Below are positions 11,835-42,598 of a stretch of 64,000 bases of DNA, in pieces. Numbering within the stretch: the first letter of the stretch is position 1; each line of letters starts with the position of its first letter. Both the position numbers and the translations under genes were made by a program. This DNA is from Bugula neritina. Its lineage: Eukaryota; Animalia; Bryozoa. The DNA lies in contig OZ037769.1 of NCBI GenBank assembly GCA_964035545.1, forward strand, positions 8,289,929 to 8,353,928. Direction: 5' to 3'. Under the pieces are notes generated by a model that worked only from the letters and a program-made list of their open reading frames with translations, was not told where the DNA came from and did no database searches.

Positions 11835-13274
11835 TCATTCTTTTGGATTGTTGGTCTTTCAGTCGGTATATAGCTTAAAGTAAATTTTTAACTTAGAAAA
11901 AATTGTTTTATTTTATAATTTATGACTGTACTTCGGAAGCAAATAATCTAACCATTGTTTTCTCTAAAATAATTATTGATATTTAAAATGTGCTGAGCAG
12001 TTTCACAAGTCGGGCTTAATCATTAACAAGCTTAATTTTGACTACTTAATTAATCTATAATAAGTACACTGTGATATTAGAGTTCGGCCTTCAGAAAAGA
12101 AACCTTTGAAGTGGTAAAATGATAATACAGAAGCCTTTATATTTAACATTAATAAATTGCAACACACTAACATTTCTAAACTACAGTTGATAAATCAATA
12201 TTTGTAACTTTATACGTACTACATTTTGTTTTCTTTAAAGTTATAACTAATTAGAGTTTTTAGTAAATGAAGTATTATGCAAAAAATCAACTATAATATT
12301 TATGCATATATATTGATTATATAAATCCTAACCATAAAAATATAATTTACTTGTCTTTCATTTATAATTTAACAGTAATATACATACTAATCAATTTTTC
12401 TTTTCATGTCTCATGGAAAATAAGATAAGGCTTAGTGCATTTGTTTTATAATAGAAGCCATGGGTGACCCTTTATTGGAATTTAAAGTGTATATGCGAAA
12501 TGTATAAGTTTATAAAAAACTTCACCATTATTGCTCAACAAATACATTTTGCATTTCAGTGGGCCACTAAAAACTAACTATTTCTGAATTAAAATGTTGT
12601 GATGATTGCGAAATTAAATTTTTAAAATTGTATCTCTACCCGAAATTCAAGCAATTAGGAAAAATGGATAGCCAACATCTTGAATGGATGATTCAAGTAA
12701 AAGTATAAATTGCACAAAATAGTATCAGATATCAACTAGCTGTTTATAAACAAATTTATTTGATGAGATACCAAACTTGATTGTTTTTCTAAGTCTACGC
12801 TTGAAACATTAAGTATAGTGAGTATATAATTACCTGAGAGTTACTCGAAGTATGTAGGCATGACATTGAAATATCGAAAGAACAATAAAGTGGGGTCTGG
12901 CCGGCCAGGGGAAATACAAGGACCAAAAGTATAGTACTGATTTATAATTATTTTATCACTAAGTCTATCGGCGTGTTTATCTACTGTAGGCTGACATCTT
13001 TCATCTTGTAGTCTCTCGTTCGTCCTTGACCCAATATGTATTTTAATAAACAAATGCACATGACATTATAACGTAGCATCTCGCTAGTCCGTAATTAGTG
13101 ATAAACAAAAGACACATAATAATATAACATCTCCCTTCAGGTGACTTTCTTCTATAACATTGTGATTAAGGTTGCTGAGATTAATAATATGATACGAGTA
13201 TACATGATTAATATGGATTGGGGATTAACAATGAAACTAAATAACTATGTACAGGGTGGGAAACGGCTAATAGC

Positions 13275-16200
13275 TTATCCCATGTGGAAGTCCTTGTATT
13301 TAGCGGGGAGGACTCCACGGTTGCTTCTGGATTGAGGCTCTGGTGGTGGTGCCGCGTTCTTGAGAAGTGTTGCAGGCAGGGCAGGCATGTGGGGGAATTC
13401 ATTAAGAGCATCTCCAACATCAGTATCAGCAGCATCAGCGACACCAAGGGTCTGTGTGTTATCTGGTTTGAGGTGAACACGATTCCTACGCACTATAGAC
13501 TGACCGTTGTCAACCAAGTAGGATCTGGGGGAGTCATGCTGTTCGACAATCATTCCTGGCGACCATTCTTTGTCAGGGCTTGACCTGATTAGTGCAGGAG
13601 TCCCAGGTTCCAGATCAGCCAACGGCCGTGCATGGCGGTCATGGTACTTCTTCTGCAAGTTTTGGTTGGCTATTAGTTGTTGGCTAGCCTCAATAACAAC
13701 TGGTTTAAGCGACTCGGCAGTGATTGGCAAATCACTTCTTAGGGCTCTGTTGAACAGAAGCTCAGCTGGACTGAAAGCACAGCCAGTGATAGGAGATTGC
13801 CTGTATCTGAGTAGTAACCTGTATATATCCTCTCTTTCATCCTCACATTTTTTTAGAAAGGCTTTCATCGTTTGCACATAACGCTCAGCCATTCCATTGG
13901 ACTTAGGGTAGTGCGGACTAGATGTTACAATGGTGAAGCACCAGCTTGATGCAAAAGTCTGCATGCTTCTACTGCTGAAAGGCATGTTGTCCGCCAGAAT
14001 GGACACTGGCACCCCGTGTACAGCAATAATAGATTTTAATGCCAAAACCACGTCTTCAGCAGTCTTTCTCCTGAGTAATCTCAGCTCGGGGAAGTGAGAG
14101 TAACAGTCCACAACTACCAAGTAATCATTATTCTTATAGGACAGTATATCCATAGCCACTTTATTCCATGGTAGACTTGGCAGTTCATGAGACATTAACG
14201 GCTCTTTCTGTTGACGGTTGGAAAACTTAGCGCAGGTGAGGCAACTTGACACTTCATTCCGTATATCAGCAGATAGCCCAGGCCAATAGAATGATTTTCT
14301 CGCAAGCTCTCTGCATTTCTCAACGCCCAGGTGGCCCATGTGTAGCGACTTTAGAATGTGCTTCCTCTGTGACTTCGGAACTATAAGCCGCTCTTCAACG
14401 TAAAGAAATTCATCCACATCATAGATGTCAGATCTAACATTCCAGTAGGGTTGGATTTCTGTGGGGGCCTGACTCCGTCTACTCCATGACCAACCATCTT
14501 GCAGTGCTTTTTTCAGACTGTCCATTGTTGGGTCTTCAGCATATGACTGTCTCATCTCATTCATGGTGCTATCATCGGTTTCTAAGGCATGAACCATCAC
14601 AACTTCACCTTCGAGATCACACTGATCATTTGTAACGTGCTGAAGGTAGGCTCGGGATAGTGTGTCAGCAATATATAAATACTTGCCTGGAACATATGTG
14701 AACTCAGCTATCCGGTATCTTTGTAGTCGCAGAAGTAGTCTTTGCAGCCTTGGGGATGCCTTGTGCAACGACTTGTTCCTTAACGGGACGAGAGGTTTGT
14801 GATCCGTCTGTATGTGAACAGCACGTCCATAGAGGTAGCTGTGAAAGCGCTCACAGCCGAACACAACTGCTAGCAGCTCCTTATCTATTTGGGGATAGTT
14901 GCACTCAGTCTCAGTTAAGCTGCGTGAAGCATATGCAACAGGTTTACCTTCCTGTAGTAACACTGCACCAAGCCCCGACTTTGAAGCGTCAACTTGTAAA
15001 TGCGCATCCTTGGTAACATCAAAATACTGCAAGACAGGTTCGGATGTAAGCAAGCGTTTAATTACCTGGAAGCTTTCCATTTGTTCTTTGGACCACACCC
15101 ATTGACTATCACTCTTCAGTAGCACTCTCAAGGGCTCAGTACAGGCTGACATGTTGGGTATGTAGGCTCTTAGAAAATTGAGAGTACCAATCAGTCTTTG
15201 TACTCCCTCTCGGTCTGTTGGGTCAGGCATGGCCTCAATAGCAGCTATCTTGTCTGGGTCAGGACGCAGACCATCTTTCGATACTATATGGCCTAAATAG
15301 CGTACCTCCGTCTGATTCAACTGAATCTTCTTGCGATTAAACTTCACATTAGCCTCTTTGGCTTTTACCAATAGCTTTCTCAGATTGGCATCATGTTCCT
15401 GTTGTGTCTTTCCAGCTACAATGATGTCATCAAAATACACTGAGACACCAGGCAAGTCTCCAAATATTTGCTCCACCTTCTTCTCAAAGACTTCAGCACT
15501 TGAGTGAAGACCAAATGGAAGTCTATCAAAACAGTAGCGACCATATGGGGTGTTGAACGTTGTGAGCAGACTACTCTTTTTGGTCAAGGCTACATGCCAG
15601 TATCCATGTTTCATGTCCATGATGGTGTAGTATTGCATACCATTGAATCTGAAGGCGATGTCTTCTAATGTGGGTATCTTGTGATGTTCTCGTCTCACTG
15701 CTCTGTTCAGGTCCTTGGGGTCTAGGCATATACGAACCGACCCATCTTTCTTTTCAACGCATACCATACTACTCACCCAGTTGGTTGGTACGTCAACCTT
15801 AAATATGATTCCAGATGCCTCCATATCATCCAGTTCCTTTTTCACTTTGTCTAACATACTGAGTGGGACACGTCTTGGATGATGAACCACAGGCTTCACA
15901 TTCTCGTCAACACATATCTCGTGCTCTCCATCAAGTCTGCCAACGCCTTCAAACACTTCAGGGAACTCCTGAAGTATCGAGGTTGACAACTGATCAACTC
16001 TGCTGATCAGACCAAAAGATTCAGCAGCCTCGAGGCCAAGTATGGGAGGAAGGTCCTCATCAACCACCTCGAAGTGAACACTCTGGCTATGCTCGTTGTG
16101 GTTCACGGTGAGTTGAACTGCACCCATATTCTTGATCTTGGCTTTATTATAGCCGTAAAGGCATACAGAAATGGGCTTTAGAGTAGCACCAAGTGACTGA

Positions 16201-16289
16201 ACGGTTCTTAGGTTGATGCAATTTGTTTCAGCTCCAGTATCAATCTTAAACGGAATATCATTGGCCTTTCCTTTGTCACTGACCTTCAT
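13275..16289 (-). CDS. pol: Pol (protease, RT, RNase H, integrase) of the Mag-like Gypsy element
   Basis: Protease IDTGA, RT YFDD, RNase H VDASKSGLGAVL...DKELLA...TDHKPL, integrase HHCC zinc finger plus D-D-E (MD, ADN, AER); 1004 aa with no stops. Confidence 0.96.
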   Translation of the reverse strand: MKVSDKGKANDIPFKIDTGAETNCINLRTVQSLGATLKPISVCLYGYNKAKIKNMGAVQLTVNHNEHSQSVHFEVVDEDLPPILGLEAAESFGLISRVDQLSTSILQEFPEVFEGVGRLDGEHEICVDENVKPVVHHPRRVPLSMLDKVKKELDDMEASGIIFKVDVPTNWVSSMVCVEKKDGSVRICLDPKDLNRAVRREHHKIPTLEDIAFRFNGMQYYTIMDMKHGYWHVALTKKSSLLTTFNTPYGRYCFDRLPFGLHSSAEVFEKKVEQIFGDLPGVSVYFDDIIVAGKTQQEHDANLRKLLVKAKEANVKFNRKKIQLNQTEVRYLGHIVSKDGLRPDPDKIAAIEAMPDPTDREGVQRLIGTLNFLRAYIPNMSACTEPLRVLLKSDSQWVWSKEQMESFQVIKRLLTSEPVLQYFDVTKDAHLQVDASKSGLGAVLLQEGKPVAYASRSLTETECNYPQIDKELLAVVFGCERFHSYLYGRAVHIQTDHKPLVPLRNKSLHKASPRLQRLLLRLQRYRIAEFTYVPGKYLYIADTLSRAYLQHVTNDQCDLEGEVVMVHALETDDSTMNEMRQSYAEDPTMDSLKKALQDGWSWSRRSQAPTEIQPYWNVRSDIYDVDEFLYVEERLIVPKSQRKHILKSLHMGHLGVEKCRELARKSFYWPGLSADIRNEVSSCLTCAKFSNRQQKEPLMSHELPSLPWNKVAMDILSYKNNDYLVVVDCYSHFPELRLLRRKTAEDVVLALKSIIAVHGVPVSILADNMPFSSRSMQTFASSWCFTIVTSSPHYPKSNGMAERYVQTMKAFLKKCEDEREDIYRLLLRYRQSPITGCAFSPAELLFNRALRSDLPITAESLKPVVIEASQQLIANQNLQKKYHDRHARPLADLEPGTPALIRSSPDKEWSPGMIVEQHDSPRSYLVDNGQSIVRRNRVHLKPDNTQTLGVADAADTDVGDALNEFPHMPALPATLLKNAAPPPEPQSRSNRGVLPAKYKDFHMG

Positions 16290-16298
16290 AGGAAGAAT

Positions 16299-17189
16299 CT
16301 AAGATTTGAATTTAGATTCATTAGAAAGAGCACCAACAGCACCTATGAACAAGCTATTCATTTGTTTCGCTGCAAGAGCTTTGCCTTTGCAGACTTTCTC
16401 AAAGTGATTTTTCTTCCCGCAGTTATGACATGTCTTGCCATAAGCAGGACATCTACCTTTGGCATGTGTATATCCACAAAATTTGCAATCTATGTTGTCC
16501 TTACGTGTGTTACTTCTGGTTTTATTTTGCGTAGCGCCAGGCTGACTCTGCACAGTGCTGACTGCAGCATAATTTATCTCATTGACTGTCTTCATAGTAG
16601 TATCACCGGCAGCCATCCTTGACATCTGCTGTTTGGTAATCTCAGCAGCACGGATGTCATCTAAGGCACTCTCAAGTTTAACGTTTTTGTCACGGAGTAG
16701 CCGCTCCTTCAGCTTTCCATCAGTGAGTCCAAACACAATTCTGCAGAGAAGCATTCGGTCTCGCAATTCGCCAAAATCACATTTTGTAGCTTGAGTTTTT
16801 AGACGTTTCACAAAGGTGTCAATGGGCTCTCCATCACTCTGACTGAGAGACCAAAAAACAAACCATTCATACAACACGTTACGCCGGGGATTGCAATAGG
16901 CTTCAAACTGCTCCAAAACATCAGCCATAACATCCTTGCTTTTACCTGCGGGAAAGTCAAATTGACCATAAATCTCAGTAGCTTCCTCACCAGCCTGGTT
17001 CAGAAGTATAGCAACCTGACGTCTATTAATACCCGCATTCTCAGGAGGAGGCTCTTGGCCACTCTCTTGAGGCTTCAAAACCAAATCACTTGCAAGCAAA
17101 TAATTTTCCAACGCCCTTCTCCACTTCCTCCAATTGTCTGACACATTACCTTCAAATGATAATTCTCCAGGGGCCTTCAAGCCTTCCAC
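16299..17189 (-). CDS. gag: Gag of the Mag-like Gypsy element (two CCHC knuckles)
   Basis: CKFCGYTHAKGRC and CHNCGKKNHFEKVC. The expected start codon reads GTG (VEGLKAPG), and the ORF ends at a TAG in frame with pol. Confidence 0.9.
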   Translation of the reverse strand: MEGLKAPGELSFEGNVSDNWRKWRRALENYLLASDLVLKPQESGQEPPPENAGINRRQVAILLNQAGEEATEIYGQFDFPAGKSKDVMADVLEQFEAYCNPRRNVLYEWFVFWSLSQSDGEPIDTFVKRLKTQATKCDFGELRDRMLLCRIVFGLTDGKLKERLLRDKNVKLESALDDIRAAEITKQQMSRMAAGDTTMKTVNEINYAAVSTVQSQPGATQNKTRSNTRKDNIDCKFCGYTHAKGRCPAYGKTCHNCGKKNHFEKVCKGKALAAKQMNSLFIGAVGALSNESKFKS

Positions 17190-17970
17190 GACAGCTCCAA
17201 GGCAGACCAACACAGTCCACAACAACAAACAACTAAAAGCTAAACAATCACCACTCCAGTGGCAAAGTAGGGTGCGAGTACGATCTAGCTGCCACCATGA
17301 AACATTAAGTATAGTGAGTATATAATTACCTGAGAGTTACTCGAAGTATGTATAGGCATGACATTGAAATATCGAAAGAACAATAAAGTGGGGTCTGGCC
17401 GGTCAGGGGAAATACAAGGACCAAAAGTATAGTACTGATTTATAATTATTTTATCACTAAGTCTATCGGCGTGTTTATCTACTGTAGGCTGACATCTTTC
17501 ATCTCGTAGTCTCTCGTTCGTCCTTGACCCAATATGTATTTTAATAAACAAATGCACATGACATTATAACGTAGCATCTTGCTAGTCCGTAATTAGTGAT
17601 AAACAAAAGACACATAATGATATAACAACGCTGATTCTGAATTTGTAATTTATAAAATGCTATTTTAATTCAAAACCAATTTGTCAATAGAAGCATATGA
17701 AATGAAAGAAACAAGCAATGTAAGATTAAATGCTTTTTATGCTGATAGGTAAAATATATAGCACAAGGGAGTTTGTTGAAATCTCTTGAGCATCGGCTTA
17801 GTGAGTCTTTTATTGGTTTTGTCCCATATAGAGGCTTCCCAGTTACACACTAATTAATAAGCTAAATTTTCCACTGGGACGTTTCCCACTTGGATGCTTC
17901 TCAGACACTATTTCTTATTTTGGTACCACATAATTATATAAAAATATACTTATATATAATATGTATATAT

Positions 17971-36895: not shown

Positions 36896-37521
36896 AACTA
36901 TTGCATTTATTGCTAAATGGCTAAACTGCTAATATATAGCTATAAAAGCTAACATGACTGATATCTGAAATAATATTCTAATCTTGTAGATTATTGCGGC
37001 AAAAAACAGTAATATATTGTTGTAATTTGCACAATTACTGTTGCGTCGATTTTGCTTGTGTATTCAGTGCTGGCTCTAACTAGTAATTACTAGGGTAGCT
37101 GTCGAGTAATAACCTTTATTATCCACAATAAAGCACAATACAAACATTACATCAATTTACAGTTAATATTAGTCATTCATTAATACGTGTTTACACTTCG
37201 AGTCCTCGCTCACAACAACGTGATAATTGCTAATTAACCCGGGAATTGTCACTGGACGGGAAGCTCGCCTACCGGTTATTCCTATTGGACGGTACAGTAT
37301 GGTCTTTAGTATTCCCCAAAAGGAGAGGAGATGATCCCATATTGTTTTACTGCGTAACCCATTACACCTCCCCTACCAGCAGAAAGCCCTACTTTCTGAT
37401 TAAAAAACAAGTATAATAATATATAAAATTTAACATAAGTAAACCCACAAAGAGAAAGAAGAGAAATCAAGTATACAAGCGTATATACATAAGGTACAAT
37501 AAAATGGTCAACACACAGTTG

Positions 37522-37657
37522 GTCAGCTACAGAGAGAGAGCAGTCGTCGATTGTCACGCAGACCAATAACCAGCTGAACGTGGTACTTAGTCAGCTACAG
37601 AGAGGGAGTGGTCACGAATTGTCACAGAGACCAATAGCCAGCTGAACGTAGCATTTA
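37522..37657. repeat. Two 68-bp tandem repeats in the Gypsy 3' UTR
   Basis: gtcagctacagagag...ttgtcac..agaccaata.ccagctgaacgt starts at 37522 and 37590. Confidence 0.85.
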
Positions 37658-37717: not shown

Positions 37718-38458
37718 TTATTCCTGTAGTGATTGAGATCTGTGTCGTGCCTGACGTGCACGTAGTCTCCGTTTCAGTCGCCCCACGGAGTCTTTTAGTT
37801 GATACAAGCCTGTCGTCGTACTGAGCAGGTCCCGGGCCAATTGTGTGAATTCTGCCTGTAACCTCAGAAGCCGTTCTTCTGCTGTTGCCAGTCGGCTAGG
37901 TCCAGGCGGGGGTGGAGTCTTCTCCTTCGTGGGAATTATCGTCGTACCGTCTTCTGTTGGAGTGTCGTGAGAAGTGATGGGGGTGGATGGTGGAGTCTTT
38001 ACCATAGGGGATCGTTGGCGGGTGGCAGTCAGTAACGTCTGGAATCCCGAAGTCAATGCAGCCAAGGTCAGGGCCTTCTTAATTACAGGCCAGATAGCTT
38101 CTGGATTTTGAGGGAAACAATCTTCATCTACCACGTGGCCTTCTCCCGCGTAGCAGGTCATCTTGTCTACGATGACGGGGTATGGGTATACATCGTGAAA
38201 CCCACACGGGCAGAAATGTAGGAGGAAGTGCGCATCTACATGCAGCCGTAGTGAGTGGTGTGAGGGACGCTCCTCTTGGCAGACCTGGCAGGTCTTGCGG
38301 GGCCACTTGGGTCCTCACGCTTCCTCAACATTTCGCTCTATCGCCCGCGACACCCATCTGTGTCGTTGGCAGAGCACCAAGGGCAGTCCATGGTCCTTTT
38401 CCGGTTTGTCGTCCATAGGTAGTGGGGTTGGCTGGTCCTGTGGCTGGGAGATAGCCAT
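37718..38458 (-). pseudogene. ORF3 of the Gypsy element: C2H2 zinc-finger + coiled-coil protein (246 codons, one in-frame TGA at codon 48)
   Basis: MAISQPQD...EEA*GPKWPRKT-CQVCQEERPSHHSLRLHVDAH (C-x2-C-x12-H-x3-H)-FLLHF-CPCGFHDVYPYPVIVDKMTC, then a Pro/Thr linker and heptad-like LATAEERLLRLQAEFTQLARDL...LYQLKDSVGRLKRRL. Splice-acceptor-like CTCTTTCAG 11 nt before the ATG. Confidence 0.78.
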
Positions 38459-41444
38459 TCAAGTGTGATCTGAAAGAGTTCAACAGTGTAAATGGTTATA
38501 CACTAAAGTACCGCCGGCGTATACAGCCTGGCAGGTGTTCTGTTCAGTTAGACACTCGTGAGATTCAGGCTAATGAATAGTTGATCAAGAGCACACACCG
38601 CTATGGTAGACCACTAGGGTCTCTAAGTCAATGTGTACTCCCACCACTATTTTCATTATCGAATCTCCAGCTCGTTAACTGGTACAGTTAGAGCTGACTG
38701 ATGTAGTTTAGTTCTCGTACCAAAACAAAACTAACTCACCCCTCGAGCCAGAATAGTAAGACATTTTGAGTGAGAGTGGTAATGATTACTGTTTCTAAGT
38801 ACGTCTACTCTTGACTGCATCAGCATAAGAAAAGAATGAACAGCGTGGTTGTAAAACAAAGCTAGGACTTTTTGTTTCCGGCGCATGAATCTCGTGCGTG
38901 ATTCAGCCGAGGCAAAAGTTGATATTTCCGTGGTGTTCATAACTCCCACGTCTTTTTGCCCGTCTCCCTGTGCGGTACCTAGTAAGGTCTTTGTACCTGC
39001 CGCAGATGGTGCGGTCACGTACTAAGTCCTTTCGGTATGCTGGGGGTTGCCTAGTGTACTGTCCTGGAGGTGTGGTCACTGTTGGAGGCGGTGTGCTCAC
39101 TCGTGGATGGTTACGCCTCGCGAGTTGTACTTCCGGCCTGTCTGTGACAGTTGTGGTTTCTCTAGTGTCTCTATACGAAGCCCCTCCCGCGGGGGGTTTT
39201 TGCACTTCCGGATCTGTAAATGATCCTGGAAGTGGTGGCGGCAGCCTTGGTGCTGGAGGCGGTAGGCGCGCTTCCAAAGATGGAAGTGGCCTTTCCTGCC
39301 TCGCCACAACTCCTTGGGGTGTCATGGACATGATTTCGACTAGGTCGACAGCCTCCGCCTGCCAAGGCCCGTCTGCATTTTGCGTCTGCCGTCCCGCATC
39401 ACTAGGGGGACGGCCATGCTTGTTGGCCTGGCAGGTTTCGCACTGTCTCACTCGGCGTCGTACATCACGCTCCATGTTGGGCCAGTACCACCGGAGTTGT
39501 AACTTGGTGAGCACACTCTGGACTCCTGCGTGAGCCAGTTGGTGGGTGTCCCGTATCTACTCTCGGCGGTTGGCAGTTGGGCAGACCACCCTCTCCTTTG
39601 CTGGTTGTCCGTGGTTGGCGGCCAAAGACATGGTCAGCAGACCATCCGGCCCGATCCGCAGTAAGTTCCAACGTTGACAGTTCAGCCGTAACTCGGCGCA
39701 TCCCTGCCTCTGTTGTTTGTCACTGGGTTGTTGCCTTTCCTGTTTGGCTCGGTACACATCGGCTACCACCCCCGGAAAGTTTTCCTGGAGATGTCATTGC
39801 TCCCTGACGCCACCGGTCCAGAGAGGTTTGGCGCGGAGGTTGTGTACTATCTCCGGGGGCATGCCAGCCCTCTGTTGGAGTTGACTCTGGTTCCAGTCAT
39901 ACTCAGTTTCTAGAGAGTTCTGTTTGTCCGGCTTGGACGGCGGGGAACCCCTGCCCTTTCTCCTAATGGCTCTTCGAGTAGGGGCAGTCTCCGCAACCAG
40001 TGGTGCTTCATGGCGCACAGCCCTATTTAGGCTGTAAACATGGTCTCCCTGGTGGTGCTTGTGTAGAAACTTGGCTTTACTCTGGCGCTCTCCGTTGCCT
40101 ACACAGCCATCCGAATATCCGCCACGCGTCCCAGAGTGGTATGGGGCGTGGTGCGGGGCGGTCCTCCGCCCTTCAGATGAGTGCTGCCGATGACTCTCCG
40201 TCGTGGTTTCCCGCTGTCTTCTTCTTGAACAGAATGGAAGCGGCCCAGTGTAGAGCCGGACGCTAAGTTTACCGACTCCGGGAAGGGGTTGATACACTGC
40301 ACCCAGATCTTTCCTCGTTTTGTCAGCTAGTTAAGACTGCGGGCGAGTTGGATTCTAGCGTGCGCACTTTTAACAACTCCCAACCTAAAGAGATAGCCAC
40401 CGTCCACTTTACAGTGAATGGTGGCCCGGAAGTGGCCGGGTATAGTAAAGCTCCGTACTACCAGTACCTCTCCCGCTAGGGAACGGCCAAAGTTATCAAC
40501 ACAGGTGAGCTCCCTATCCCCCATTAGCATCGCAGATTTACTGAAATCGATGCGACACCCGTGTCGTTGTAAGAATGGCATCCCAAGGATAACATCCTCG
40601 TTGAGCTGTCTGGCAATGAACGTCTCCTGGATGGTCTGGTCGCAGATGCGTCCATTAACCTCAGAAATATCATAGAAGGGAATGCACGACCTGTCTGCTC
40701 GGGTGCCATAATCCCCTTCGTATGGTTCCAGCCCCCTCCTGATCGTAGCGCCGAGTGTGTCAAAGAATTGACGGCTCAGGAGAATGGTGGTGCAGCCTGA
40801 GTCAAGTAGGAAGTTGGCAGGCTTGCCAGCTATCTTTCCTGGTAGGAAATAGCTGCTTCCATGGGGCTGCATCCGTACCTGCCGTGGCTGCACCTCCCTC
40901 ATCACAGGTCCAGGAATTGGTGATTGGTGACGACCGTGAACCAGCTGCGGGGGGTAAAACGACACGCCTCGGGGCGTCCGTGTTGCTTTCCTCGCAGGCT
41001 CTACAATCCGCAGTCTGTCAAATCTGTTGTGGAGCGGCACAGAGAACACAGGTGGCGAGTGGCTGGAACTGCCCACTTGCCATGTTGGTGGCAGTTCCAT
41101 GAGGTTGCTGAGTGGTGCCCAGCGTGGCGGCCACTACTTTGTTCTCCCTTGGGAATTCACCGGCGGCCCGCAGGAGGTGGAGCATCTGCGCGCCACGGTA
41201 ATTTAACCCCGGCTGAGGTTGAAGACAGCTCTTCTGGAAGTGTCCAGGCCTTCCGCATTCTCAGCAGAAAGGGTGCCCCGTACCTGGTGACTGTGCCGGC
41301 GGCCCGCTAGGCTCACGGGCGATGTCTACCTGGTTTGGGGGGGCTAACGTAGAGACCAGTTTGGCTAGCATGTCGATCATTTGAGCGACCTTCAATGCTA
41401 CCGTCATCTGTGTCACGTTAGCCACCGCTGGAGTAGTGAGTAGC

Positions 41445-42204
41445 TACACAGGATAGTTAAGGGCATCCTCACTAAGAATATCATAAATTTCTCTCAAAAT
41501 GTAGTTCAGGTTCTTGAATAATATTGCTCTGCGGGTGGCATGCGTGTTGCCTACTTGTAATTGTTTAGCCTAAGATTAAACTACAGCCAATGAGCAGCAA
41601 CCTTCATTAGGGCTGCGTTATCTATCAACATTACATTATGGGTGCTACATAAACAAAGTACAAAGCGAGCTATTCATAATAGCCTGCCAGCTAGCAAGCC
41701 TATAATTAGCATGTACGCGCCAATATCTTCTCATCCCTACGTGCTCATTGAAGCGTGAAGCACTGCGCGCTGCTAGTTTCTTATGAAAAAATATGGCATT
41801 TTCAGTGTATAAATCACCAATTTATGGGCAATCTAGCAGAGTTATTGGAAAATGAAAAAAAGTTGCACTGGAGAAATATCTCAGGATTCTAGCAATGTAA
41901 TTTTTATTCAGATATCATGTTTTGCTGCTGAGATATTTTACTGGTACTGAAAAGTCAGCTTTTCAGGCAAAATTGGCCAAAATCGGGCAGTTTTTTGTCT
42001 ATAACTTTGCAAAAAAAATGAAAATTGAAATTTCCAAAAAAGTTGCACTGGGGAAAAACAAGATCTACAACATAGTTTTTAAATTTTGACTCTAGCACAA
42101 TTAGGTGAGATTTTATTTTACTGGTACTGAATTCTTATATGATTACAATGCAAACCTCAGCAAGGCAGTTGCAGCTAAAAAGTTGCCCTTAACTATCCTG
42201 TGTA
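41445..42204. mobile_element. MITE with 21-bp perfect TIRs inserted in the Gypsy gag region
   Basis: tacacaggatagttaagggca ... tgcccttaactatcctgtgta; direct repeat agtgagta on both flanks (offset by 2 nt on the left). Confidence 0.85.
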
Positions 42205-42598
42205 AGTGAGTATAAGGGTGAATGGTGATGAATTGTCCTGTGCCACTGTATGCAAAAGTGTGTAATAAAAAAATGATCAAAACGCTACATTTATTATCCA
42301 CAATAAAGTGCAATACAAACATTACATCAATTTACAGTTAACATTAGTCATTCACTTCGAGTCCTCGCTCAGAACAACGTGATAATTGCTAATTAACCCG
42401 GGAATTGTCACTGGACAGGAAGCTCGCCTACCGGTTCTTTCTATTGGACGGTACAGTATGGTCTTTAGTATTCCCCAAAAGGAGAGGAGATGATCCCATA
42501 TTATTATACTGGGTAACCCATTACAATAATATTAATAACAAAAATTATCTTTAATTAATGAATATACTCAAACACAAAATATATAACAAACCCCAAAG

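Follow-up and report, generated by a model that had tools for sequence, protein, structure and literature searches.

What kind of gene does a bryozoan Gypsy retrotransposon carry between pol and its 3' LTR, if that gene is not env? The question arises from a 64,000-nucleotide stretch of Bugula neritina DNA (here called the window), for which a preliminary description had proposed a zinc-finger, coiled-coil third ORF (ORF3) behind its own splice acceptor. The answer bears on a wider problem, since few LTR retrotransposons are understood in how their unspliced RNA escapes the splicing and silencing of the host and reaches the cytoplasm. Judged by its relatives, the ORF is a broken member of a third gene that is conserved across an animal Gypsy family, and the gene is discussed here together with the RNA and the element that surround it (Table 1).

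Table 1. Features of the element, in the element's own 5' to 3' order (positions in the window)
Feature	Positions	Strand	Basis
5' LTR, 3'-truncated	42287..42525	-	228 of 239 aligned bases equal to the 3' LTR
Foreign high-copy repeat DNA	41447..42286 (approximate boundaries)	.	LTR match ends at 42287; much higher contig depth; gag match resumes at ~41430
gag 3' remnant	41195..41431	-	matches relatives P0244, P0250, P0260
Aspartyl protease and next pol region	40210..40992	-	Pfam gag-asp_proteas, E 5.9e-8
Junction of RT/RNase H deletion	39943..39953	-	window match of RT-bearing relatives breaks off here
Integrase zinc-binding domain and beginning of core	39311..39556	-	Pfam Integrase_H2C2, E 2.4e-14
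pol C-terminal tail	38903..39310	-	ORF list
Long RNA hairpin in pol-ORF3 spacer (predicted; candidate response element)	38560..38667	-	sense z -5.8, antisense -3.9
Three-way RNA junction (predicted)	38460..38558	-	z -3.4
Candidate splice acceptor CTCTTTCAG	38470..38478	-	sequence; compatible tripeptide in relatives; contig ends
Third ORF (246 codons; internal stop at codon 48)	37718..38458	-	ORF reading and relatives
Zinc finger 1 (C2H2)	38228..38290	-	motif, conservation, fold model, weak profile matches
Zinc finger 2	38153..38212	-	intact relatives have C2HC; window copy lacks one ligand
Pro/Thr-rich disordered linker	37904..38008	-	least conserved part; pLDDT 50-61
57-residue helix, heptad coiled coil with Arg-rich end	37724..37894	-	fold model, heptad count
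Two 68-nt tandem repeats in 3' untranslated region	37519..37654	-	79% alike
Polypurine tract	37367..37377	-	sequence, abuts 3' LTR
3' LTR, 328 bp, TG..CA ends	37039..37366	-	LTR comparison

A Gypsy element without its enzymes

The element has the direct TG..CA LTRs and the polypurine tract of Ty3/Gypsy elements, its 5' LTR being truncated. Foreign repeat DNA has replaced the LTR end, the primer-binding site and most of gag; the CCHC knuckle of the gag remnant (41266-41225) is broken by a stop within the motif, and the element's flanks, ATTAT and GTAAT, match at three of five positions. The pol order is that of Ty3/Gypsy (PR-RT-RH-IN), with protease followed by the integrase zinc domain in the window and PR-RT-RH(-IN) in relatives P0244 and P0264. 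The protease DSG lies at 40809-40795, and relatives of the protease region are 50-80% identical. RT, RNase H and the integrase core are absent, so that the window element is not autonomous.

These losses are old in the lineage. The RT/RNase H junction is crossed in one open frame, free of RT motifs, by 12 of 35 pol relatives. The integrase core is deleted at about 39311, where full pols cease to match (39311-39317) and where three relatives cross the same point. Moreover, the enzyme-deleted relatives form a clade (100/100) that shares the window's deletions. Such a lineage would borrow its enzymes from autonomous relatives, and export of its own RNA would still be required. An old non-autonomous lineage appears to retain an accessory gene after enzyme loss.

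The third ORF is a family gene

The frame runs on the minus strand as had been described, from ATG 38458 to a TAA at 37718, with codon 48 (38317-38315) as its sole internal stop, and the element map bears out its place in the env position. A search of 1893 candidates gave 148 relatives at E<=0.001, of which 120 are listed; 51 of the 120 are near full-length and open, with pairwise identities of 39-92%. A one-off capture or insertion is rejected by these 148 relatives, as the earlier view of a family ORF had anticipated. A chance ORF is rejected by the relatives, by the pattern of changes and by a shuffle test: the finger 1 motif is unique in the window in all six frames, and its mean count was 0.0 in 200 shuffles of the 3.7-kb element.

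In the eight zinc-ligand columns, 11 changes are singletons and one is common to at least three copies. The ratio of shared to singleton changes is 1.08 for the linker, compared with 0.48 for the fingers and 0.37 for the coil. Conservation of the ligands and the coiled coil, and not of the linker, is a sign of purifying selection. Five zinc ligands are invariant across 85 sequences that range down to 21% identity, and the other three are kept in at least 90%. The residue that had been guessed for codon 48 did not hold up, being present in only 1 of 89 relatives.

Scans of metagenome, viral and genome contigs did not yield a further contig on which pol and ORF3 stand together; equal-sized contigs for ORF3 and protease matches gave a weak hint of linkage (2 coincidences vs. 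0.39 expected). Three distant pol fragments lie within bacterial assemblies, with no ORF3 match there.

A two-finger domain and a coiled coil

The first finger, C-x2-C-x12-H-x3-H, is present at codons 57-77 and combines the classical C2H2 motif with a predicted beta-beta-alpha fold. Its Pfam scores are weak: the zf-C2H2 check proposed earlier succeeded to the extent that 11 of 20 members match zf-C2H2_4, with a best E of 0.0044. The finger also resembles DNA-binding C2H2 fingers (SALL3, E 1.4e-4). The presumed second finger has three of four ligands in the window copy and the full pattern in 69 of the 81 relatives that cover it. Five residues, most of them hydrophobic, link the two fingers within one predicted folded domain. 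The Pro/Thr linker, heptad helix and basic tail of the preliminary description are likewise all in the window's frame, and the a/d positions of the helix have a hydrophobic fraction of 0.73 vs. 0.24 overall. An Arg-rich tail (at least 6 R/K in 14 residues) occurs in 46 of 51 relatives; the basic stretch is weaker or elsewhere in a second ORF3 family and in the bryozoan genes discussed below.

A fold model based on a shallow alignment scored low (pLDDT 53.8); for the intact natural relative P0004, a two-finger domain and a long helix are predicted at pLDDT 82.3. The structural comparison suggested earlier yielded a fold and no clear match to it. The whole-protein model of P0004 had no match in PDB or BFVD at E<=0.001, the sole hits of a wide fold search with the same model were generic coiled coils (Z at most 6.0), and the nearest Atlas models, ASCIZ and IDD-type fingers, fall under the Atlas naming bar. 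What can be defined is an unnamed two-finger domain common to element ORF3s and bryozoan genes.

Could the protein nevertheless descend from an envelope? Its place behind an acceptor and its coiled coil are what a degenerate env or fusogen would offer, but we find that origin scarcely credible. The peak 19-residue hydropathy is 1.14 (only 8 of 115 ORF3 relatives reach 1.6), there are no N-glycosylation sites, the Cys and His residues stand at zinc-ligand spacing, and the viral fold search gave no match at E<=0.001. The transmembrane anchor and glycosylated ectodomain of an errantivirus third ORF are both missing, and Env identity is rejected, in agreement with the first reading of the locus.

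Translation start, splice acceptor and folded spacer

ATG 38458, at first taken as the start, is probably not that of the family: of the 31 relatives that extend upstream, 3 retain it, and the second Met is retained in 40 of 49. In the window copy another in-frame stop directly precedes ATG 38458. The acceptor-like CTCTTTCAG is present as reported, ending at 38470, 11 nt before that ATG. Taken alone it is unremarkable (rank 14 of 282 AGs by a crude score). However, an acceptor-compatible tripeptide is read through by 26 of the 120 relatives listed, 4 of these with the variant expected from TAG. In 3 of the 16 contigs listed, the spacer match extends to 38462-38470 and is followed by unlike sequence of 133-1148 letters; among the matches listed, none joins or breaks off at the acceptor in a way that would mark a spliced copy. 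On these sequence grounds the third ORF is likely made from spliced RNA. Splicing at 38470 would either join it to an upstream exon or leave translation to start at the second Met. Sequencing run X1, whose RNA origin is a guess, covers non-coding repeats and is DNA-like.

The non-coding spacer (38460-38700) has a strong predicted fold (sense z -6.0), and a stem of the predicted junction pairs the acceptor AG (38474-38470 with 38547-38543, probability 0.98). The spacer is not the sole stable fold, since 8 of 71 sense windows fall below z -2.5 and a second strongly folding stretch lies at 39200-39350 in the pol tail (z about -5.5 to -5.8). Values below -4 are found in none of 62 windows of a two-gene Gypsy and none of 50 flank windows, and the 3' UTR folds no better than shuffles (z +1.7). 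Differences between copies, drawn from the best-supported 40 of 86 rows and mutually non-independent, lie in loops or preserve pairing in 19 of 23 cases, with 4 that break pairing vs. 9.1 expected (P 0.017). The 23 listed differences include no double compensatory changes, and Rfam gave 0 matches.

What the protein may do

How might the protein relate to the folded RNA? By analogy with Rev and CERV, we tentatively favor a spliced regulator that may bind the folded unspliced RNA and steer it to export or away from splicing, a reading that we put somewhat short of probable. With its two zinc fingers, coiled coil and Arg tail, the ORF3 protein would be nuclear, would self-associate through the coiled-coil helix and would contact the predicted hairpin. 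In this model the hairpin is intronic and would therefore be present in the full-length RNA but missing from the third-gene mRNA. The anatomy favors RNA-level control more than the LTR transactivation or targeting named in the preliminary description. Because intact versions of the gene occur in nature and a candidate RNA target can be named, the RNA-export reading is directly testable.

The main rival to the Rev/CERV-like regulator is a factor that binds DNA and, dimerised through its coiled coil, activates the element's own LTR or shields it from silencing; we consider this reading rather unlikely. The weak matches of finger 1 to DNA-binding fingers argue for it, as do the acidic N-terminal extension of the second ORF3 family and psi-K-x-E motifs in low-copy bryozoan genes. 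The occurrence of GTGACAAT in both LTRs and both 68-nt repeats would also fit, but its count is within chance (5 seen vs. 2.76 expected, reached by 15 of 100 shuffles). Furthermore, DNA-reading finger arrays usually have a flexible linker between fingers, whereas the short hydrophobic link found here sits inside one predicted domain, and an LTR activator leaves the folded spacer unexplained. Perhaps the protein instead acts on other proteins, countering piRNA or chromatin silencing, tethering the integration complex or aiding particle assembly via the coiled coil. The compact C2H2-C2HC domain, with no fold match in the whole-protein search and with ASCIZ and IDD-type fingers as its nearest Atlas models, could be a protein-binding module. 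Domain profile searches of the third ORF, however, found no enzyme or chromatin-reader domain, and a targeting role fits poorly because the gene is retained in a lineage without an integrase core; we judge protein-level action unlikely.

Low-copy bryozoan genes could point to yet another origin. Proteins KAF6037488 of Bugula neritina and XP_067940964 of Watersipora subatra have the two-finger domain (27-32% identical; duplicated in the Watersipora protein) and a C-terminal coiled coil, and differ from the element ORF3s in their low-copy look, their N-terminal extensions and their uncharacterised state. If a host zinc-finger exon had been captured and were passively carried, the shared domain and coil would follow. 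In the Bugula gene model an upstream exon is spliced on immediately ahead of the domain, so capture could have left the acceptor behind as a relic. Passive carriage is nonetheless quite improbable: shared changes spare the ligands and coil, which is not expected under it, and two multicopy ORF3 families, only 25-35% identical, preserve the entire architecture. The tree of element ORF3s and bryozoan genes is unrooted and fits host-to-element and element-to-host transfer alike. The sharing of the domain may reflect either capture or domestication. A more sweeping proposal, which we regard as doubtful, is that a marine-invertebrate Gypsy family evolved a Rev/RRE-like system of its own, in which a coiled-coil protein with zinc fingers is paired with a folded RNA in the intron that also masks the acceptor. 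In this scenario a parasitic lineage would have kept the module while discarding RT, RNase H and integrase core, and the domain would have passed between elements and genes of bryozoan hosts.

Comparison with known systems

To our knowledge, HIV-1 Rev has no zinc finger. Rev has a clear export signal, whereas NES-like patterns in the ORF3 protein are confined to the folded domain. The likeness lies in the small size and the Arg-rich helix, and in the spliced RNA and self-association that are proposed for ORF3; as with the Rev response element, structured RNA (predicted here) would be found only in the intron-retaining RNA (Rev is summarised in PMC10309623).

The env position is shared with errantivirus env, which differs in that the window protein is without a membrane segment; neither "zinc finger" nor "C2H2" appears in the main text of PMC13524379, which covers Gypsy elements of marine invertebrates including Bryozoa. 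LTR elements of bdelloid rotifers have family-specific, non-Env ORF3s in the env slot, typically from spliced messages, and these are GDSL esterases, DEDDy exonucleases, coiled-coil or transmembrane proteins; the word "zinc" is absent from that text (PMC5408684).

CERV, from the Gypsy-type element Cer1 of C. elegans, is made from a spliced mRNA and is required for export of the genomic RNA (PMC10309623). It too belongs to the accessory proteins encoded by animal LTR retrotransposons, and it carries a Cys loop resembling a zinc finger, together with a leucine zipper and a basic signal. CERV is nevertheless a protein of 517 aa that overlaps gag, with a C4-type loop and a G-protein-like domain. 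The ORF3 protein is smaller, at about 246 aa, its gene sits between pol and the 3' LTR, and its fingers are of the C2H2 and C2HC types. The claim of novelty therefore survives in part: we found no described Gypsy cargo of this form in the literature searched, but non-Env third ORFs in rotifers and a spliced zinc-finger/leucine-zipper protein in Cer1 were already known, and because these precede it, ORF3 is a new form of a known phenomenon. With CERV as the accessory protein of an animal Gypsy-type element found in the literature, the ORF3 family is a second, apparently unrelated candidate.

The window copy of ORF3

The Gypsy element that carries the third ORF (ORF3) has a complete 3' LTR (TG..CA, 328 bp), preceded by a purine tract, and a shortened 5' LTR that is identical to it at 228 of 239 aligned bases; no clean target-site duplication was found in the flanks. 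The LTR end, the primer site and most of gag have been replaced by foreign high-copy DNA, after which come a broken CCHC knuckle, the protease and the integrase zinc domain. RT, RNase H and the integrase core are absent from the window element. In one relative, P0136, part of the same high-copy repeat is fused to ORF3.

Coordinates of the Gypsy elements, ORF3 and associated repeats
Feature	Position	Strand	Content
Gypsy element	42525 to 37039	minus	LTRs and internal remnants
Third ORF	38458 (ATG) to 37718 (TAA)	minus	246 codons, single stop at codon 48
High-copy repeat DNA	41447-42286		replaces element sequence
3' UTR tandem repeats	37519-37654		two 68-nt units
Second Gypsy element	12855-17627	minus	two genes, apparently intact

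The frame with one break reported in the preliminary description is present, with an in-frame stop immediately 5' of its ATG. It holds the canonical C-x2-C-x12-H-x3-H finger that had been noted, the sole such motif in the window's six frames (mean of 0.0 over 200 element shuffles). When the break is read as X, Pfam detects no zinc finger in the protein and matches it only to a coiled coil, weakly. Finger 2 has lost one ligand. The arginine once proposed for codon 48 occurs in just 1 of 89 relatives. The window copy of ORF3 is dead.

A non-autonomous lineage

The integrase deletion is spanned, with zero differences, by an 836-nt contig of sequencing run X2, from which the window may itself derive. 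Of the longer protease-region relatives, 35 in number, 9 have RT motifs and 14 are uninformative; the other 12 lack RT motifs and have a single open frame running across the RT/RNase H junction, and 3 of these also cross the integrase junction. In Pfam, the pol relatives P0235 (716 aa) and P0236 (722 aa) show a protease and an integrase zinc domain and nothing else. In a pol tree of the window and 31 of the 35 relatives (4 were too short), the window, the 9 included deleted relatives and 3 uninformative rows form one clade (100/100), placed among RT-bearing relatives. Judging from these comparisons, loss of RT, RNase H and the integrase core is a trait of the whole lineage. The window pol differs from P0236 by 3 stops and 2 frameshifts; considering these lesions together with the shared junctions and the clade, the element is a degraded member of a lineage that is old and non-autonomous.

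The second Gypsy element in the window has 275-nt repeats that are 99% alike, a gag frame of 345 aa and a pol frame of 1007 aa that includes RT, RNase H and integrase; a third ORF of at least 100 aa is absent. Gypsy pol fragments also occur within bacterial metagenome-assembled genomes (L001-L003), probably as host contamination.

ORF3 as a conserved gene

That the family encodes ORF3, as had been suggested, is borne out by 148 relatives among 1893 candidates. Among the 120 of 148 matches listed, an open frame of nearly full length is found in 51, whose pairwise identities are 39-92%. Of the listed matches, 81 cover the fingers: the finger 1 pattern is complete in 62, the suspected second finger appears as a complete C-x-C-x12-H-x3-C in 69, and both are complete in 53. 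A full HMMER search gave 56 matches, including members at 27-35% identity, and in 85 sequences five zinc ligands are invariant and the remaining three at least 90% kept. Two ORF3 families can be aligned over 233 columns, including both fingers and the coil (probability 99.8). On this sequence evidence, the third ORF is a real, conserved family gene.

Selection was gauged at the protein level in the 51 near-full relatives, by comparing changes shared by at least 3 copies with singleton changes. The shared/singleton ratio is 0.48 in the fingers and 0.37 in the coil and tail, against 0.79 in the post-finger helices and 1.08 in the linker, where indels are concentrated; the eight zinc ligands show 1 shared change versus 11 singletons. 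We take this for the pattern that would be expected if changes were filtered during element replication and copies then decayed.

For other copies, the evidence that links ORF3 to the element is indirect. Pol relatives reach into the spacer, the non-coding stretch between pol and ORF3, as far as 38770-38789. Of 231 ORF3 relatives, 16 have matches to the window upstream of 38480, with 15 of these lying in the spacer as far as 38730, and 6 have matches to the 3' UTR. The full length of the element is represented in contigs from two runs, as many divergent copies, and scans of metagenome, viral and genome contigs found no second element locus as DNA.

Named relatives are bryozoan only: KAF6037488 of Bugula neritina and XP_067940964 of Watersipora subatra, the latter with the finger domain twice. 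Together with two further proteins, they make up small clusters whose members are nearly identical, in contrast to the scattered element copies, and may therefore be host genes. For the Bugula protein, the gene model (317 aa) leaves the unspliced reading (257 aa) just ahead of the domain, implying an intron there. A marine invertebrate is the likely host of the window. An unrooted tree, subject to a long-branch warning, splits the window's ORF3 family from a second multicopy family and low-copy genes. Members of that second family (P0155, P0157, P0180-P0232) are about 365 aa long with an acidic N-terminal extension. The annotated Watersipora gene (P0147/P0171; XP_067940964, XP_067940963) encodes two finger domains and a C-terminal coiled coil, and is a candidate domesticated or source gene.

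Possible splicing, start and predicted RNA folding

The acceptor-like CTCTTTCAG noted earlier ends 11 nt ahead of the ATG, and this candidate, at 38470, ranks 14th of 282 AGs by a crude score. Among the 120 of 148 matches listed, 26 relatives could be called through the acceptor, reading L/F-S-D in 22 and L-L-D in 4, both compatible with a retained AG. The proposed start at ATG 38458 is probably not that of the family: of 31 relatives extending upstream, 3 retain it, and a further 16 begin there; the second Met is present in 40 of 49. The true start thus likely lies at the second Met or in an exon upstream. In 3 of 16 contigs among the matches listed, the spacer matches up to 38462-38470 and the sequence is then unlike; contigs that share 38462-38630 in this way suggest that related elements carry another third gene, or one that has diverged further.

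The spacer is predicted to fold far better than its shuffles (z -3.9), into a long hairpin and a three-way junction in which the acceptor is paired. For 38460-38700, z is -6.0 in sense versus -3.4 in antisense. No control window, among 62 of the two-gene Gypsy and 50 flank windows, fell below -4; of the element's own windows, 8 of 71 had a z below -2.5, with a value of -5.8 for one that lies in the pol tail. Between copies, 23 differences in the spacer are listed from the best 40 of 86 rows: 11 lie at unpaired positions, 8 leave the pairing intact and 4 disrupt it, where 9.1 disruptions would be expected (P 0.017). The minus-strand pol tail is also predicted to fold strongly at 38900-39050 (z -3.4) and at 39200-39350 (z -5.5), the latter straddling the integrase-deletion junction. 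Each 68-nt repeat of the 3' UTR has a strong acceptor-like pyrimidine-AG and contains the GTGACAAT word, present in the LTR too.

Possible roles of the ORF3 protein

AlphaFold2 was applied to a natural relative, P0004 (71% identical), giving pLDDT 82.3 with an 85-row alignment and just 53.8 with 51 close rows. The model predicts a single folded domain at about 21-150, where helices surround a pair of beta-beta-alpha fingers, followed by a disordered linker and a helix (189-245). Finger 1 weakly matches SALL-type fingers (E 1.4e-4), 11 of 20 members weakly match zf-C2H2_4, and Atlas entries for the Bugula protein fall in generic C2H2 clusters. A tail with at least 6 Arg/Lys in 14 residues is found in 46 of 51 relatives, and NES-like patterns are confined to the inside of the folded domain.

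The reading we favour, while giving it somewhat less than an even chance, is a role like that of HIV-1 Rev or of CERV, the accessory protein of Cer1; past the anatomy, we infer every step. The protein would be made from spliced RNA, enter the nucleus through its basic tail, self-associate via the helix and, on unspliced RNA, attach to the hairpin in the intron. Such a role fits a lineage that would borrow enzymes yet still has to export its own RNA. An LTR transactivator seems a weaker prospect, and a factor in protein-level anti-silencing, targeting or assembly slightly weaker again. Passive cargo is improbable. The top 19-residue hydropathy is 1.14 and N-glycosylation sites number 0, in agreement with the original view that the protein is not Env; a degenerate Env is hardly credible.

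Comparison with known elements

The earlier impression that no known Gypsy lineage has such cargo agrees with the literature as sampled, which held no C2H2 third ORF in animal Gypsy elements; Repbase, Dfam and GyDB lay outside the search. In the passages covered, PMC8220671, PMC8556966 and PMC6338049 contain none, 'zinc' does not occur in PMC5408684, which lists rotifer non-Env ORF3s, and the main text of PMC13524379, on env-bearing Gypsy elements, has no zinc-finger ORF. A C2H2 third ORF in this form is apparently new to that literature, and accessory third ORFs of Gypsy elements are already known as a kind; CERV, the accessory protein of the C. elegans element Cer1, is described in PMC10309623.
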